A stretch of DNA of 64,000 bases from Planctomycetota bacterium (GCA_020848275.1 JADLAK010000077.1:7606-71605); one strand, 5' to 3'; positions 34,600-40,224 are shown, counted from the stretch's first letter. Program-made: numbers and translations. The notes: generated from the sequence alone by a model not told the origin.

Positions 34600-34630
34600 A
34601 ACAAAGGGCGGCCATGCTTGGCCGCCCTTC
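34600..34630. terminator. Probable bidirectional terminator
   Basis: 11-bp stem AAGGGCGGCCA/TGGCCGCCCTT between convergent genes. Confidence 0.7.
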
Positions 34631-34657
34631 GATAAATGGTCGTTGCGAGCACCCGGA

Positions 34658-35023
34658 TTAATAGTCGACAGGCACTTCCTCGAACTTGGTCACGCCATGG
34701 CCGCTGTCCTTCAGGGCTTTCTCGACGGCTTCCTGGGTCATCTCACTGCGGCGCTTCATTGTGATAGTCGCAATTTTGCCGTCGATGGTCACGTCGGACA
34801 CGCCCGCGATGGTCTTGAGCAGGTCCTCGACTTTCTTGATCGTGTCGGCGTCTTTCATCTCGCCGGAAATCTCGATGCTGTAAACGCGCGACGGCTGCGG
34901 GCGGCAACAGGCGCAGATCAGGCCGGTCTGGGCTTCACCGCCGGTGACGGCCGGGAACGCCGAGAGGCTCTGGGTTCCAAGAATCGCAAAAGCAAACATT
35001 GCGGCGAAGAAGGTGTTGCGCAT
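34658..35023 (-). CDS. Exported HMA-fold protein lacking the canonical CxxC
   Basis: Signal peptide. YSIEISGEMKDADTIKKVEDLLKTIAGVSDV aligns to the HMA fold with MxCxxC replaced by MKDADT. A CACC motif precedes the domain. Confidence 0.7.
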   Translation of the reverse strand: MRNTFFAAMFAFAILGTQSLSAFPAVTGGEAQTGLICACCRPQPSRVYSIEISGEMKDADTIKKVEDLLKTIAGVSDVTIDGKIATITMKRRSEMTQEAVEKALKDSGHGVTKFEEVPVDY

Positions 35024-35312
35024 GACAATCCTTTCTTTGAGCATTTTCAGCTTGTTGTAGCGGATCTTGCTTGCGGCGAGCGTCGCATCTCTGCGTCAGC
35101 CTCACTTTGCGTGGCTTTCAGCCACGCGGTCGTTCGGCTTTCTTGACCTGATCGCTCGGCGCGGCGCAATATCGCGCTCCATCAATGCTTCAAAAGCTCT
35201 TTTCGGGGCGGGCTTTTCGGCGCTCTTGTCACGCTGGACTCGCGTGGCCCCTACTAGTTTGGCGGCAAAATTACCGCTGCAAACTAGACGCGCGTTGCGC
35301 CCGCCGGTTCCG

Positions 35313-35346
35313 AAAAAACGAAGCGGGACGGCGTTAGCCGTCCCGC
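35313..35346 (-). terminator. Rho-independent terminator after the Cys-rich HMA gene
   Basis: 10-bp stem GCGGGACGGC/GCCGTCCCGC. An A-run on the + strand gives a U-tract on the - strand. Confidence 0.8.
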
Positions 35347-35366
35347 GAAATCGTTTGAACGTTGAA

Positions 35367-36005
35367 TTAGTTGCTGGCCTTCTTGCCGCAGCCTTCGCAC
35401 TCCTTCTTCGGAGTTTCAGCGGAGGCTTCCTTCTTGGGCTCTTCCTTCTTTTCCTCGACCTTGACGACCTTGTCGCAGGAAGTCACGCCGAAGTCGGTAC
35501 CCTTGAGGGCCGTTTCGATGGCCGCCTTGTCGATGGTCTTGCCTTCGTTCATGGTGATGGTGACGGTGCCTTTTTCGACGTCCACGGCAACGTTGGCGAC
35601 GCCGTCGATCTTCTTGATCTTGGCCGCAACGCTCTTTCCGCAGCCGGCGCAGCACATCTCGGTGACAACAACGGTGTAGACGTCACCGGTCTTGGTTTCA
35701 GCTTTCACTTCCTTCTTGGCTTCGCAGCCCTTGCAGCCTGCACAATTCTTGCTGCCGCAGCCCTCACAGCCGCCAACGGTGCCTGCTTCCTTGGCGCCGG
35801 CGTCCTTGGTCTTGGTGCAGGTGCCGCCGCCACAACCGCCGCAGCCGCCACCACCGCACCCGCCGTCGTCCGCCTTGGTCGCGGCCTTCTTTTCGGTGCT
35901 TGCGCCGCAAGCGCGCTTACAGCCGCAACTGCCGGCAAACGCATCGCTGCCCATGAGCGCGGCGCCGGCAAACATCAGGAGAAACACAAAGAAAGTTGAG
36001 CGCAT
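35367..36005 (-). CDS. Exported HMA-domain protein with Cys/Gly-rich metallothionein-like N-terminal region
   Basis: Signal peptide, multiple CxC/CxxC clusters, YTVVVTEMCCAGCGKSVAAKIKKIDGVANV and C-terminal CEGC. Confidence 0.85.
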   Translation of the reverse strand: MRSTFFVFLLMFAGAALMGSDAFAGSCGCKRACGASTEKKAATKADDGGCGGGGCGGCGGGTCTKTKDAGAKEAGTVGGCEGCGSKNCAGCKGCEAKKEVKAETKTGDVYTVVVTEMCCAGCGKSVAAKIKKIDGVANVAVDVEKGTVTITMNEGKTIDKAAIETALKGTDFGVTSCDKVVKVEEKKEEPKKEASAETPKKECEGCGKKASN

Positions 36006-36188
36006 CTGCTATTCCCTTTTGGGTGGTTGAATGCTGGTTAGAACGAAAACCTTATCACGGTATGTATCTTTAGTGGAGCAGCTCGGTGCAAGATTACCGA
36101 CTATTTGCGGCGATGAAATCGACCCTGCAACCATCTATCAGATAAGCACTTACAGATGATTAGGTCTGCCTCAGCCTATCCCCGTTGT

Positions 36189-36629
36189 TCAACCCTTTGG
36201 TGGAGGTTGAGCAGCCTCTGGTTTTTCCTTTGTGGGCTCTTTCTTGGCCTCTTCCTTGACCTGCTCAAAGGACGTGACGCTGAGGCCGTCTTTGGAGTTC
36301 TTCACGGCTGTCTCTACGACCTCTTTGGTCAATGTCTTTCCGGGCTTGGTGACGATCACCGCGGTTTTGTCTTTCAATGTGACAACTACGCTGTTCACGC
36401 CATCCAGGCTGGTAAGGGCGGTCTTGGCCGCCTTGACTCACATACCTCAGGACATCCCGTCAATGATGACCTTGTAGGTTGTTGGCGCCGCCGCACCATC
36501 CGCTTTGGCAGTTTCAGGTTTGTCGGTCGCCTTTGGGTCACTTGCGGCGTCGCCGGCAAAAGCGACGTTAGCCCCGAGGAGAGCGATACCTAACGCGAGG
36601 ATAAAGATGAACTTCAGAAACGATGCCAT
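36189..36629 (-). CDS. Exported HMA-domain putative selenoprotein with two in-frame TGA (GMS-U-GM-U), 146 aa
   Basis: ORF-track fragments 36447-36629 and 36189-36398 are in one frame. Joined they read YKVIIDGMS*GM*VKAAKTALTSLDGVNSVVV, an HMA domain with TGA (36447-36449, 36438-36440) at both Cys positions. GGAGA RBS, signal peptide. Confidence 0.88.
36396..36434 (-). promoter_or_regulatory. Candidate bacterial SECIS hairpin pair
   Basis: mRNA after the UGAs: AAGGCGG-CCAAGA-CCGCC(C)UU, then CA-GCC-UGGAU-GGC-(G)UG. Confidence 0.55.
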
Positions 36630-36667
36630 GAGTTTTCTCCAACCGGTCTAACGTTAGAAACGAGGGG

Positions 36668-37114
36668 CTACTTCACGCCGTGTGACGCCTTCAGCGCCGC
36701 CCAGTCCCCATTGCGATCTTCCTTGAGGCTGACCAGTCCGTATCCGAAGTCGTCTTCAATACTTTTCTTGAGTGACTCGTACTCAAGCTTCGCCTTTTCG
36801 TTACCGTGCAAATAGATGTTGAATTCCTCGATGACGGTGAAAGCGTCGGTTATCCCTTCCAGGGATAGCAGGGCGTCAACGACGCCCGTGGCTCAGCCGC
36901 CTCAGTCCATGCCGGTGATGCCCAGGATATAGATGACATCCTTGCTTGTCGGCTTAGGCGGTTTGGGCAGGGGTTCGGGCGTCGGCTCGGGCTCGGGTTT
37001 TTCGACGCCGCCGCCTCCTTTGCGGAACTCGATGGGCGTCAGGTCTTCAACGGTGATCTGGCAGCCCGCGATCAGGAACGCGATTGAAGCCAGCAGCGAC
37101 AAACCGTGCTTCAT
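36668..37114 (-). CDS. HMA-domain lipoprotein, putative selenoprotein with two in-frame TGA (GMD-U-GG-U), 148 aa
   Basis: Lipobox LIAGC and Pro-rich linker, then IYILGITGMD*GG*ATGVVDALLSLEGITDA. TGA at 36902-36904 and 36893-36895. The frame stays open to TAG 36668-36670. AAGGA RBS. Confidence 0.88.
36851..36887 (-). promoter_or_regulatory. Candidate bacterial SECIS hairpin pair
   Basis: Two perfect 7-bp stems right after the UGAs: GGGCGUC-GUU-GACGCCC and UAUCCCU-GGA-AGGGAUA. Confidence 0.65.
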
Positions 37115-37126
37115 GGCCGGATTCCT

Positions 37127-38002
37127 TTAAAAGACGTACGAGAACATAAGCATGGCTTCGCCCTCGTGCACGAACTGCTTGCCGAAGTGATAGTGGTAAA
37201 GCGGCAGCATCACGCCGAATTTCACCTCGAAATCGTTGTTGATGTTCATCTGGAAGCCAATGGCCGCCTCAACTTCATAAAAGCCGCTGTTTTCATCGCG
37301 ATCGCCGTCCATCTCGCCCTGGGCGCGCGCTTCAAAATCCATTTCAACGAGCAGGATCATGTCGAAGTCGCGGTAGTTCTTGATCTCCCACAGACGATGG
37401 CCATAGGCCATGTGGGTCTTGAACCCTGGCCCCTCGCCGGAATCGGAGCGGCGCGTCGACCCATAACCTGCCAGGTCTATCCAGAAATAGTGGCGTGTAG
37501 TGCTGGTTTGCGCGGTCAGGCCTCCCATGAACGTAAAGGTTTCGTCGCCAAGGGAAGGGCCGTCGACGCGTTTTTTTGCGGTAGGCAGTTCGGCCCGGAC
37601 AAACCAGCCCGCCTGCGAACTTCCGCCGGGGTATGGATGGTAAAGGAAGCGGTACTTGGCGCTGATCTCGGCGTTGCCCGGCCCGTAGTAACTTTCGCGA
37701 TCGTCTTTGGACCACTCAGATACGTAAGTGACAGGAAACTCAGCCTTGAGCGACCAGTCGCGCGAAATGCCCCAAGTAAAACCCGGCATGACCATGTGCT
37801 CAAATCGCCGCAGGTCACGCGGGTTTTCGTCGGGATTGTCGCCGCTGAAAAAGCGATAGGAGTACTCGAACATCTGCTCGACTTCGACCTCGAAGCCGTT
37901 GGTCCAGATCGTGCGCGGCGTCAGCCCAAACATGGTCTCGTGCGCATACGCGCCGCCCGCAAAGATCGCCAGCAAAAGCCCGATAATGCTCAGTTGTTTC
38001 AC
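37127..38002 (-). CDS. Putative outer-membrane beta-barrel ('transporter'-like) protein
   Basis: GTG start with AAGG RBS, signal peptide (AYA|HETMF), alternating amphipathic beta-strand pattern and C-terminal Phe (LMFSYVF). Confidence 0.7.
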   Translation of the reverse strand: MKQLSIIGLLLAIFAGGAYAHETMFGLTPRTIWTNGFEVEVEQMFEYSYRFFSGDNPDENPRDLRRFEHMVMPGFTWGISRDWSLKAEFPVTYVSEWSKDDRESYYGPGNAEISAKYRFLYHPYPGGSSQAGWFVRAELPTAKKRVDGPSLGDETFTFMGGLTAQTSTTRHYFWIDLAGYGSTRRSDSGEGPGFKTHMAYGHRLWEIKNYRDFDMILLVEMDFEARAQGEMDGDRDENSGFYEVEAAIGFQMNINNDFEVKFGVMLPLYHYHFGKQFVHEGEAMLMFSYVF

Positions 38003-38016
38003 GCGGCACCTTTTCC

Positions 38017-38478
38017 TTACTTCGACCTTGCACCGACCGTCTTGCGCACTCCCTTGGGGTGATCCTCGCAACACGACTTGCCCTCAAGGTCCTGAAGGAT
38101 ATTGCAGTCTTTGACGCTCGCCGCGCCGCCGGGGCAGTGCTCCACCAGTTCCTTCAAGTGATTGCGCATCTGGTGCAGCAGCGCAATCTTGCCCTCGATC
38201 TCGGCCAGCTTGCGTGCGGCCACTTCACTGATGTCGCCGCAGGTCGCGATGTTCGAGTCGCGCAGGAAAAGCAGTTCGTGGATTTCCTTGAGTGTGAAGC
38301 CGACGTCCTTGGAGCGCTGGATGAACCGCAGGCGCTCGGCGTCATGTTCGCTGTACAGGCGGTGGCCGCCCGAGGTGCGCTCGGGCTTGGGCAGCAAGCC
38401 TTCGCGCTCGTAGAAACGAACGGTTTCAATGTGGACTCCCGCGGCGGTGGCAAGCTTGCTGACGGTCATGGCGTTCAT
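38017..38478 (-). CDS. merR: MerR-family metal-responsive regulator (three-Cys MerR/ZntR/CadR type)
   Basis: HTH GVHIETVRFYEREGLL. Cys80, Cys115 and Cys125 match the MerR Cys82/117/126 pattern. Extra CCEDH tail. Confidence 0.88.
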   Translation of the reverse strand: MNAMTVSKLATAAGVHIETVRFYEREGLLPKPERTSGGHRLYSEHDAERLRFIQRSKDVGFTLKEIHELLFLRDSNIATCGDISEVAARKLAEIEGKIALLHQMRNHLKELVEHCPGGAASVKDCNILQDLEGKSCCEDHPKGVRKTVGARSK

Positions 38479-38496
38479 GGCGAACCTCGTATGAAA

Positions 38497-38527
38497 AGTC
38501 TATCTCCGTAGCTTACTACGGGTTCAA
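38497..38527 (-). promoter_or_regulatory. mer-type promoter/operator: -35 TTGAAC, 19-bp spacer containing dyad CCGTAG-TAAG-CTACGG, -10 TAGACT
   Basis: The minus strand reads TTGAAC CCGTAGTAAGCTACGGAGA TAGACT. Classical PmerT is TTGACT CCGTACATGAGTACGGAAG TAAGGT (same spacer length and dyad). Confidence 0.88.
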
Positions 38528-38742: not shown

Positions 38743-38818
38743 GGTCAGGTAGCTCAGTTGGTAGAGCAGCGCATTGAAAATGCGCGGGTCGCTGGTTCAA
38801 GTCCAGTCCTGACCACCA
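38743..38818 (+). tRNA. tRNA-Phe(GAA)
   Basis: Acceptor stem GGTCAGG/CCTGACC with ACCA end, D-arm AGCTCAGTTGGTAGAGC, anticodon arm GCGCA-TTGAAAA-TGCGC and T-loop GGTTCAAGTCC. 76 nt. Confidence 0.97.
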
Positions 38819-38898: not shown

Positions 38899-39954
38899 TT
38901 ATTTCGGCGCCTTGGCGCGTTCGATTTCGGCCACGGCGTCGGCCTTTTCGCGCGCGTAGATTTCGCGCAGGCCGCGGTCACTGGCGATGTTGCGCTCGAC
39001 TTCAGCGTGGATGGCCTTCACTTCGTCGCGCGTGATCTTCAGGACGCTTTCACTGAAGACGTCGGACGTCATCAGCGCCCGCGCCAGCGTCCGCACCGCG
39101 AAGGTCAGCGGCAGCGCGCAGAACAGCCGTATATCGCGCTCCAGCGGCGGCACCGACAACGTGTATTCCAGCGCCTCGTCGAGCCACAGCAGCGTCTGCT
39201 CGCACAACCCCGCGACGACTTCGCGGCCGCGCGGGTCATTCGGGTTGTCGATCAGCGTCTGCAACTCGATGCCCGAACGTTTGAAGAGGCTGCGTGGAAC
39301 GTACGTAACGCCGCGCTCGATGTCGTCCGTGACGCCTTTAATGATGTTTGTGACCTGCAGGCCGAGGCCGAAACTTACCGCATACCGGTCGAGTTGCTTG
39401 CGCACCGCGGGCGTCACCGACGCCCGGTCGAGCGCGAATTCGTTGGTCAGCAGCATGCCGACGGTGCCCGCGACGTAGTAGCAGTAGCGGTGCAGGTCCT
39501 CCATGTTCTCGAGTTTCAGGCCCTCGCCGCGCAATTCGCGGTCGACCGTCGCCGCCATGCCCTCCGCCATCTCGACAAACGAGCGCTTCATCGCGTCGCG
39601 TGCCCCGGGCCGAAACGCGTGCAGCGCCTTGAACACCGTGGTGGCGTGGCGACACAGGTCGTGGTCTTGACCGGCCAAGGCCTTATCCGCGAACATTTTT
39701 TCGATCTCTGCCGCCAGCATCGGCCAGTTGTGCGGGTCCAGGATCGATCCCGGCACGGCTCTCAGCAGCGACGCCCGGGCCTCCGCCGGCAGGCTGGTCG
39801 TGTCCTCGATGGTGTCGAGAATGCGGCAGATCAGATAGGCCACGCCGATCTCGTCGCGCAGCGGCTCCTTGAGCAGTTCAATGCCCAGGGCAAAGGTGCG
39901 GCTGACGGCGGGAAGCACGCCGCGGCAGTAATCTCGGGTGGCGATATCGAGCAT
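38899..39954 (-). CDS. Squalene/phytoene synthase family (single-enzyme squalene synthase type)
   Basis: VSRTFAL, YLICRILDTIED, YCYYVAGTVG, FGLGLQVTNIIK and FCALPL. Confidence 0.88.
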   Translation of the reverse strand: MLDIATRDYCRGVLPAVSRTFALGIELLKEPLRDEIGVAYLICRILDTIEDTTSLPAEARASLLRAVPGSILDPHNWPMLAAEIEKMFADKALAGQDHDLCRHATTVFKALHAFRPGARDAMKRSFVEMAEGMAATVDRELRGEGLKLENMEDLHRYCYYVAGTVGMLLTNEFALDRASVTPAVRKQLDRYAVSFGLGLQVTNIIKGVTDDIERGVTYVPRSLFKRSGIELQTLIDNPNDPRGREVVAGLCEQTLLWLDEALEYTLSVPPLERDIRLFCALPLTFAVRTLARALMTSDVFSESVLKITRDEVKAIHAEVERNIASDRGLREIYAREKADAVAEIERAKAPK

Positions 39955-40224
39955 AGTGAGGGGGCGGAGTATACCGGCGGAGAGGCCGGTAATGGAGAGC
40001 CCTGTTGAACGTCCGGGAAAAGAGGCAAAAAAGTGCCGCGAAATGAAGCAAATTGACAAAAAAATCGTTGTGCGATGGCGACAAGAAAGACGAAAGTTGA
40101 CAGAAGGTAACGCGCTGGTAGCGTTTAAAGATTGTCCGATGCTTGAGTAATGTGAGACGTGGGCAGTAGTCTGGAGTAGCCCGGAATGCCCGATACAGAG
40201 GTCCGATCCAAGGGCGGTGCAGCC

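Follow-up and report, generated by a model that had tools for sequence, protein, structure and literature searches.

A 64,000-nt stretch of DNA from a Planctomycetota bacterium (GCA_020848275.1 JADLAK010000077.1:7606-71605; hereafter the window, whose numbering is used throughout) carries on its minus strand, at positions 34658-38527, an operon for a MerR-type regulator, an outer-membrane beta-barrel, and four exported proteins of the HMA type, two of which have in-frame TGA codons at both metal-ligand positions. The operon is probably an undescribed envelope arm of toxic-metal defence, because it shares its operator with a metal-export pump encoded elsewhere in the genome. We read it, with a probability of roughly 0.55, as an inducible module for periplasmic capture and hand-off of metal, with passage across the outer membrane, that acts downstream of the pump.

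An earlier note on this DNA, made from the sequence alone, had placed six minus-strand genes behind a mer-type promoter, with gaps of 14, 12, 38, and 183 bp along the operon from merR. Six open reading frames (ORFs) are indeed present once read-through of TGA is allowed in two of them, and their order, the gaps, and the promoter are as described there. All five proteins other than the regulator carry export signals in their sequences. The note had also seen no merA, merT, or P1B ATPase gene in the window, which holds; in the genome as a whole MerA and MerT were likewise not found, but a P1B ATPase with the same operator is encoded on another contig. Our literature search found no paper that describes the whole operon architecture, in agreement with the note's own impression. 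New relative to the literature searched are the constant association of the small barrel with an exported HMA protein, the MerR-type promoter shared with a pump, the Sec-x-x-Sec lipoprotein form (Sec, selenocysteine), and the MxxSD variant of the pump.

An operator shared with a P1B ATPase

The merR promoter, read directly from the sequence, spans 38497-38527 on the minus strand. Its -35 element TTGAAC (38522-38527) and -10 element TAGACT (38497-38502) are separated by a 19-bp spacer that holds the dyad CCGTAG-N4-CTACGG (38506-38521), and relatives have kept this dyad ahead of their merR genes. The strict form, CCGTA-N6-TACGG, occurs three times in the genome, which is 4.4 Mb in 111 contigs and 88% complete. 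One copy belongs to a second promoter of the same spacing (TGGAAG-19 bp-TACAAT), which is nearly leaderless, with the start codon of a P1B ATPase gene (C37:3939-6245, outside the window) six bases further on. Both promoters are predicted target sites of the MerR protein. The operator, with at most one mismatch, was found within 140 nt in 15 of 20 orthologous ATPase promoters, where chance would give about 0.004 per promoter, and several genomes have it there as the reverse complement of their own merR operator. A MerR-family sensor that drives a P1B ATPase and a chaperone is a classical arrangement.

The merR gene (38017-38478, minus strand; 153 aa) encodes a protein with Pfam MerR_1, MerR-DNA-bind, and MerR matches. 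Its operator resembles the mer operator, TCCGTAC-N4-GTACGGA, and not the CueR box. The best solved relative of the regulator is Bacillus MerR (4ua1, E 1.3e-26), whose three Hg-binding Cys residues align with Cys80, Cys115, and Cys125. All 18 orthologues compared retain these three, one of which begins the dimerisation helix and two of which are in the metal-binding loop; CueR-type sensors have Ser where the helix begins. Sensors of monovalent metals have a conserved Ser at this place, and those of divalent metals have Cys instead (PMC11672702). Because of this Cys and the three-Cys site, the regulator is classed, from its residues, as a predicted sensor of the divalent soft-metal type. The three-Cys pattern is not specific to Hg, since Hg sensors share the same arrangement with PbrR and also with CadR (PMC11672702).

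The co-regulated ATPase has an N-terminal domain with the motif GMTCAHC. Its transmembrane (TM) motifs are CPC, N-x6-YN-x4-P, and M-x2-S-D (M-V-L-S-D), present in 21 of 21 orthologues. In P1B-1 (Cu+/Ag+) ATPases the corresponding set is CPC in TM4, N-x6-YN-x4-P in TM5, and M-x2-SS in TM6; the regulated pump thus departs from that set in TM6, where MxxSD takes the place of MxxSS. The second P1B ATPase of these genomes, a paralogous CopA, retains MxxSS. Both the Cu-type model TIGR01511 (492.6 bits, cut-off 397) and the Cd-type model TIGR01512 (368.9 bits) are passed by the co-regulated ATPase. By its motifs, the MxxSD group may represent an unrecognised P1B subgroup.

These features bear directly on whether the operon belongs instead to a copper or silver regulon, like CueR-CopA-CueP/CusF or GolS-GolT-GolB, in which the UxxU proteins (U, Sec) would chaperone Cu(I)/Ag(I) in the periplasm and the barrel would let copper out. 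The pump's score against TIGR01511 and its CPC and N-x6-YN-x4-P motifs speak for such a regulon, as does the metal-binding loop of the regulator, which in most orthologues has C-x7-C, the loop spacing of CueR. The HMA proteins match CopZ models as well as they match MerP, and CsoR-family genes stand beside some distant homologues of the barrel and its HMA partner (L088, described below). Against it are the Cys at the start of the dimerisation helix, which marks divalent-metal sensors, and the Hg-MerR protein as the best structural relative; the operator, too, is like that of mer and unlike the CueR box. In addition, a canonical CopA with MxxSS is already encoded in these genomes, and the Asp of the regulated pump's MxxSD is conserved. 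We regard a copper or silver regulon as unlikely.

As in the CueR, GolS, and ZntR regulons (CopA-CueP, GolT-GolB, CopA-CusF-CusCBA), a single MerR-family sensor would govern an efflux ATPase and soluble HMA-type carriers, and a periplasmic carrier would relay metal outward. Unlike those systems, the one described here has a small 12-stranded barrel rather than a TolC-like duct on an RND pump, carriers with Sec, and a pump with the MxxSD variant of the Cu(I) motif. With merR-first mer operons (Bacillus RC607/B. megaterium; 4ua1) it has in common the three aligned Cys, the 19-bp spacer, the CCGTA...TACGG-type dyad, a regulator co-linear with its targets, and, as with MerP, an exported HMA protein that would bind the metal first. 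It differs from them in its Sec ligands, in a regulator that falls below the equivalog cut-off, and in the outer-membrane barrel and P1B ATPase that replace the logic of uptake and reduction. MerA, MerT/C/F, and MerB were not found in the genome: no protein exceeded the MerA cut-off in the 88% that is complete (best model match 309 bits, cut-off 454), and neither a MerTP fusion nor a MerB-like protein, used as tblastn queries, gave a match. A mer-type import route (MerP to MerT to MerA) was rejected on these grounds.

Very probable selenocysteine in the HMA proteins

The first HMA gene of the operon (36668-37114, minus strand) encodes, when TGA is translated as U, a lipoprotein of 148 aa with the lipobox LIAG/C, a Pro-rich linker, and the motif GMD-U-GG-U. 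Its in-frame TGA codons are at 36902-36904 and 36893-36895. The second (36189-36629, minus strand) encodes an exported HMA protein of 146 aa with a cleavable signal peptide and the motif GMS-U-GM-U; its in-frame TGAs are at 36447-36449 and 36438-36440, and its true stop is also TGA (36189-36191). In each UxxU site the two UGAs are 9 nt apart. A stop-tolerant search of 61 related genomes found both TGAs kept in 21 of 21 lipoprotein homologues at 34-57% identity, each with exactly two in-frame TGAs, a constant motif G[IM]D-U-G-x-U-[AT]TG, and a reading frame that is conserved afterwards, well beyond what chance would give. Paralogues and distant partner HMA proteins have Cys (CxxC) at the positions equivalent to Sec.

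The machinery for Sec insertion, for which the earlier note had proposed a search, is complete in this genome: selD, selB, and selA each score above their curated cut-offs, and one tRNA-Sec (selC) is present. The selD gene itself carries one in-frame TGA, and selA was found in 23 of 23 genomes of the family. Directly 3' of the second UGA of the lipoprotein gene are two tandem hairpins (36851-36887, minus strand; GGGCGUC-GUU-GACGCCC and UAUCCCU-GGA-AGGGAUA in a single-sequence fold), which are a candidate Sec insertion sequence (SECIS). In an alignment of 19 sequences 89.8% of the cells are paired, and five pairs have changed on both sides; the covariation score was reached by none of 500 shuffles, and sliding the partners abolishes the signal. 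RNAalifold, used independently, recovered hairpin 1 and a shorter form of hairpin 2. Protein coding accounts for part of this conservation. Changes such as GUC/GAC to AUC/GAU couple a non-synonymous with a synonymous change, as expected under constraint on the RNA.

That the TGAs are ordinary stops, and the two genes pseudogenes or split fragments without any selenoprotein, is a reading to which we give almost no credence. It would account for the fact that gene callers cut both genes at TGA, and TGA is after all the normal stop of the exported HMA gene. It would leave unexplained why the TGAs fall exactly at the two metal-ligand positions in all 21 homologues with the frame kept beyond them, and it is opposed as well by the full Sec machinery and the conserved downstream hairpins. 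From this comparative evidence the in-frame TGAs are nearly certain to encode Sec, and the proposal of the earlier note that the UxxU sites contain Sec is very probable. The two genes here hold four Sec codons between them; sister genera have up to six.

The earlier note did not regard proteins of this kind as unprecedented, and UxxU HMA selenoproteins are in fact already catalogued, as NF041115 (PMC13188914); surveys list a UxxU selenoprotein as a "putative mercuric reductase" (PMC13188914, PMC9312934). NF041115 (UxxU_metal_bind) is likewise a small protein of HMA fold in which both metal-binding Cys are replaced by Sec, and it is the best NCBIfam match of the exported UGMU protein. The score of that match is 43.8 bits, and that of the lipoprotein 20.4 bits, where the cut-off is 95; the proteins of this operon differ further in being exported and, in one case, in being a lipoprotein whose linker is rich in Pro. 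The selenoproteome surveys draw no link between UxxU HMA proteins and a barrel, a merR gene, or a co-regulated pump (PMC13188914, PMC9312934). A literature search on Sec, Planctomycetes, and HMA, and on COG4313 or PF13557 with MerR, returned nothing relevant.

Against the Pfam HMA model (PF00403, gathering score 24.8 bits) the exported UGMU protein scores 39.3 bits and the lipoprotein 23.8 bits, just below the threshold. The next gene (35367-36005, minus strand) encodes a Cys/Gly-rich exported HMA protein of 212 aa (35.1 bits) with a metallothionein-like N-terminal region, the site EMCCAGC, and a C-terminal CEGC. It is separated from the exported UxxU gene by the 183-bp spacer (36006-36188), which is AT-richer; a second operator was looked for in this spacer and none was found. 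An intrinsic-terminator-like hairpin and T run follow the Cys-rich gene at 35323-35346 on the minus strand, as the earlier note had indicated, with a 10-bp stem, nine GC pairs, and the tail TTCGTTTTTT. The sixth gene (34658-35023, minus strand) encodes an exported HMA-like protein of 121 aa with a weak HMA score of 18.1 bits, and another terminator-like hairpin was located by the scan after it (34602-34631, minus strand). The note had called the sixth protein Cys-less, which is incorrect: it is without the canonical loop Cys, yet has C-A-C-C immediately before strand 1, and its orthologues in three sister genomes (L030-L032) read U-x-G-U at that position.

The HMA genes differ in their distribution. 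A homologous Cys-rich HMA protein is present in 16 of 21 loci, and the exported UxxU protein and the UxGU/CACC protein are restricted to the genus of the window and one sister genus; exported UxxU orthologues in L030-L032 read UAGU or UATU. Gene order suggests that the UGMU gene was inserted or duplicated into the operon later, because in most relatives the Cys-rich gene directly follows the lipoprotein gene. Elsewhere in the genome, outside the window, another lipoprotein gene (C41:38600-39150) has three in-frame TGAs and encodes an HMA domain with UGGU fused to a thioredoxin-like region with the motif GHG-U-GA-C.

The outer-membrane barrel and its HMA partners

Between merR and the lipoprotein gene lies the barrel gene (37127-38002, minus strand; GTG start), which encodes a protein of 291 aa with a signal peptide ending AYA/HETMFG. 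A single-sequence AlphaFold model (pLDDT 34) was not used; the alignment-based model (pLDDT 89.9) has 12 strands. The top Foldseek matches of this model were the polypeptide transporter FapF (5o67, E 2e-11; TM-score 0.66-0.68) and a COG4313 channel (4rl8, TM-score up to 0.72). A word-indexed homologue search found only four relatives of the barrel; among 1.84 billion proteins, relatives at E<=0.001 form 70 representative clusters. The barrel of the window has no match to PF13557 (Phenol_MetA_deg), which homologues at 24-30% identity do match (E 1e-12 to 1e-5). Like the COG4313/Phenol_MetA_deg channels (Pput2725, 4rl8) and FapF, it is a predicted 12-stranded barrel with a short N-terminal segment before strand 1. 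Unlike the COG4313/PF13557 channels, it occurs in a metal-handling context rather than one of aromatic or lipid catabolism, and its N-terminus is specific to the subfamily.

That mature N-terminus, His-Glu-x-[MLI]-F-G-x-x-P-x-T, is conserved and begins about 15 residues before strand 1. In Pput2725 (COG4313) the N-terminal 14 residues are inside the 12-stranded barrel (PMC4493636). By analogy, the conserved N-terminus (His-Glu-x-Met/Leu) probably lies in the lumen here, and we suggest, without proof, that it is a lumenal metal-contact element.

The match to FapF raises the question of whether the barrel might be a translocon for polypeptides that exposes or releases the HMA proteins at the surface, where metal would be trapped outside the cell. 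FapF is the top structural match, and the long Pro-rich linker of the lipoprotein could thread a pore. At position +2, next to the lipobox Cys, the lipoprotein has Gln, a residue that would send it to the outer membrane in E. coli. The TM-score to the small-molecule channel 4rl8, however, is equal or better, the barrel has no periplasmic coiled-coil domain such as that of FapF, and partner HMA proteins in other lineages are not lipoproteins. We consider a FapF-like role very improbable.

Twelve-kb stretches around 20 lipoprotein homologues outside the window's genome were examined for synteny. In nearly all of them merR, the barrel, and the UxxU lipoprotein occur in the same order, so that the arrangement is shared by about 20 genomes of uncultured Planctomycetota, and the recurrence that the earlier note had proposed to look for is borne out. 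Clustering of the ORFs gave a core of merR, barrel, lipoprotein, and Cys-rich HMA gene, flanked by housekeeping genes. When 185,579 species genomes were searched with a DNA pattern that spans the UxxU site, 20 stretches matched. Each comes from a metagenome-assembled genome (MAG), and the labels are Planctomycetota, Planctomycetaceae, and, once, "uncultured bacterium"; the isolate names of these MAGs suggest wastewater sources. Within the 61 relatives, lipoprotein matches are limited to one family and one genome of a neighbouring family.

The pairing of the barrel with an HMA protein extends much further. Among eight distant barrel homologues (22-33% identity) whose gene neighbourhoods we inspected, six have an exported HMA gene directly adjoining the barrel gene. 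Barrel homologues of other lineages at 23-30% identity have such neighbours with CxxC, CxxU, or UxxU. In L081 the order is MerR, a thioredoxin-like protein, barrel, HMA, an NHL protein, ArsR, and a P-type ATPase; in L083, HMA and barrel; in L086, a MerB-like protein, barrel, HMA, and an NHL protein; in L088, CsoR, MerT-HMA, barrel, and a double HMA. In L085 the barrel is followed by an HMA protein with CxxU and in L089 by one with UxxU (C-A-F-U at L085:1289-1593 and U-A-T-U at L089:4959-5368), both of which gene callers had ended at 36-38 aa. L079 has its barrel homologue beside YHS, thioredoxin, and DsbD genes, and in the two most distant cases, L090 and L091, HMA-like proteins without a Cys pair follow the barrel. 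The pairing is therefore older than the Planctomycetota operon; other phyla have it too, with either Cys or Sec in the HMA protein. It looks functional, because HMA genes adjoin barrel homologues in such distant lineages, and the partner sequences indicate repeated replacement of Cys by Sec. In two unrelated lineages the barrel and HMA genes are followed by one for an NHL-repeat protein (L081:2478-3476, L086:5140-5511, L087:1350-1940), which the planctomycete operon lacks.

A tRNA-Phe gene (38743-38818) borders the merR promoter immediately upstream and is encoded on the other strand. The same tRNA-like sequence also accompanies the locus in L031 and L043, so that its place in the chromosome seems stable. 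We rejected a mobile-element origin of the locus in view of its housekeeping flanks and the tRNA-Phe kept beside it in sister genera. Further upstream, on the minus strand, a squalene/phytoene-synthase-like ORF of 386 aa (38899-40059) appears unrelated to the metal genes.

Proposed route and metal

The signal peptides, the lipobox, the barrel fold, and the sponge-like Cys-rich paralogue are all consistent with the envelope role in capture or relay that the earlier note suggested. The order of events that we propose is as follows: a thiophilic metal in the cytoplasm would cause the sensor to activate both promoters, and the ATPase would move the metal into the periplasm. There the diselenolate and thiolate HMA proteins would bind it, along with metal arriving from outside. 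Finally, the tethered UxxU lipoprotein would pass the metal to the barrel, which would be its route across the outer membrane.

We consider a divalent soft ion the most likely metal, with Hg(II) as the first choice, followed by Cd, Pb, or Zn: the sensor has a three-Cys site, GMD-U-x-x-U is the sequence of the HMA loop, and Asp replaces the second Ser of the Cu(I) motif in the pump. ZntA-type domains read GMDC, and an Asp before the first ligand has been linked to divalent-metal binding; a literature search on the ZntA motif GMDCAAC found no paper. The MerT- and MerB-like neighbours of distant barrel-HMA pairs were also counted in favour of a divalent soft metal. The earlier suggestion of Hg or another soft metal agrees with the regulator, which looks like an Hg or divalent type, but mercury is not established, and the pump is closest to the Cu(I) type.

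That note had also suggested that metal is possibly sequestered rather than reduced. An operator shared with an efflux ATPase favours hand-off and export over pure sequestration. In a purely sequestering system the HMA proteins would be a stoichiometric sponge in the periplasm, and the barrel a general or uptake channel with no part in metal exit. The four exported metal-binding proteins, one of them metallothionein-like and Cys/Gly-rich, would suit a sponge, and no energised outer-membrane exporter is present; channels of the COG4313 group are thought to take up hydrophobic molecules (PMC4493636). Yet the barrel and its HMA partner have remained neighbours in very distantly related lineages, which speaks for a shared function, and two Sec per metal ion would be costly for a sink that is never emptied. 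A co-regulated efflux pump, moreover, raises periplasmic metal, which then needs an exit. We judge pure sequestration to be distinctly improbable.

Several observations weigh against capture and hand-off downstream of the pump. A passive barrel alone cannot drive export, and the direction of flow is inferred from the co-regulated pump alone. Diselenides could form in an oxidising periplasm, and the operon has no gene for a reductant. In three genomes another gene is upstream of the ATPase, and the operator was not found within 140 nt. The higher score of the ATPase against the Cu-type than against the Cd-type model conflicts with a divalent metal. The regulator has TIGR02051 (MerR) as its best NCBIfam match but, at 131.8 bits, does not reach the equivalog cut-off of 150.85, and the ZntR model NF007069 is near at 128.8 bits (cut-off 143); the CadR/PbrR and CueR models are also close behind.

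Whichever metal is carried, the operon is a dense natural set of Sec-x-x-Sec metal sites in which selenolate and thiolate affinities can be compared in one fold, and it is useful for studying the decoding of two UGAs nine nucleotides apart. It also calls for a correction of annotation, as gene callers cut the UxxU proteins in two.

To our knowledge, the crossing of the outer membrane by toxic soft metals is largely unaddressed in mer-type and CopZ/P1B-type defences, the RND/TolC-type Cus system apart. A barrel gene that adjoins an exported HMA gene across phyla, together with an operator shared with an ATPase, offers a concrete candidate for this step. A wider proposal, tentative and possible rather than likely, is that the barrel and a secreted HMA protein are a widespread, undescribed outer-membrane step for thiophilic metals, which in this organism would be part of export across three layers, with the MxxSD pumps as a divalent P1B subgroup. 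If that is true, mer-type or CopZ-type systems would have in the barrel their first dedicated outer-membrane component. The route would lead from a MerR-type sensor to an MxxSD P1B ATPase, from there to diselenolate chaperones, and on to the barrel, and Sec would provide the affinity step that draws Hg(II) or Cd(II) off periplasmic thiols.

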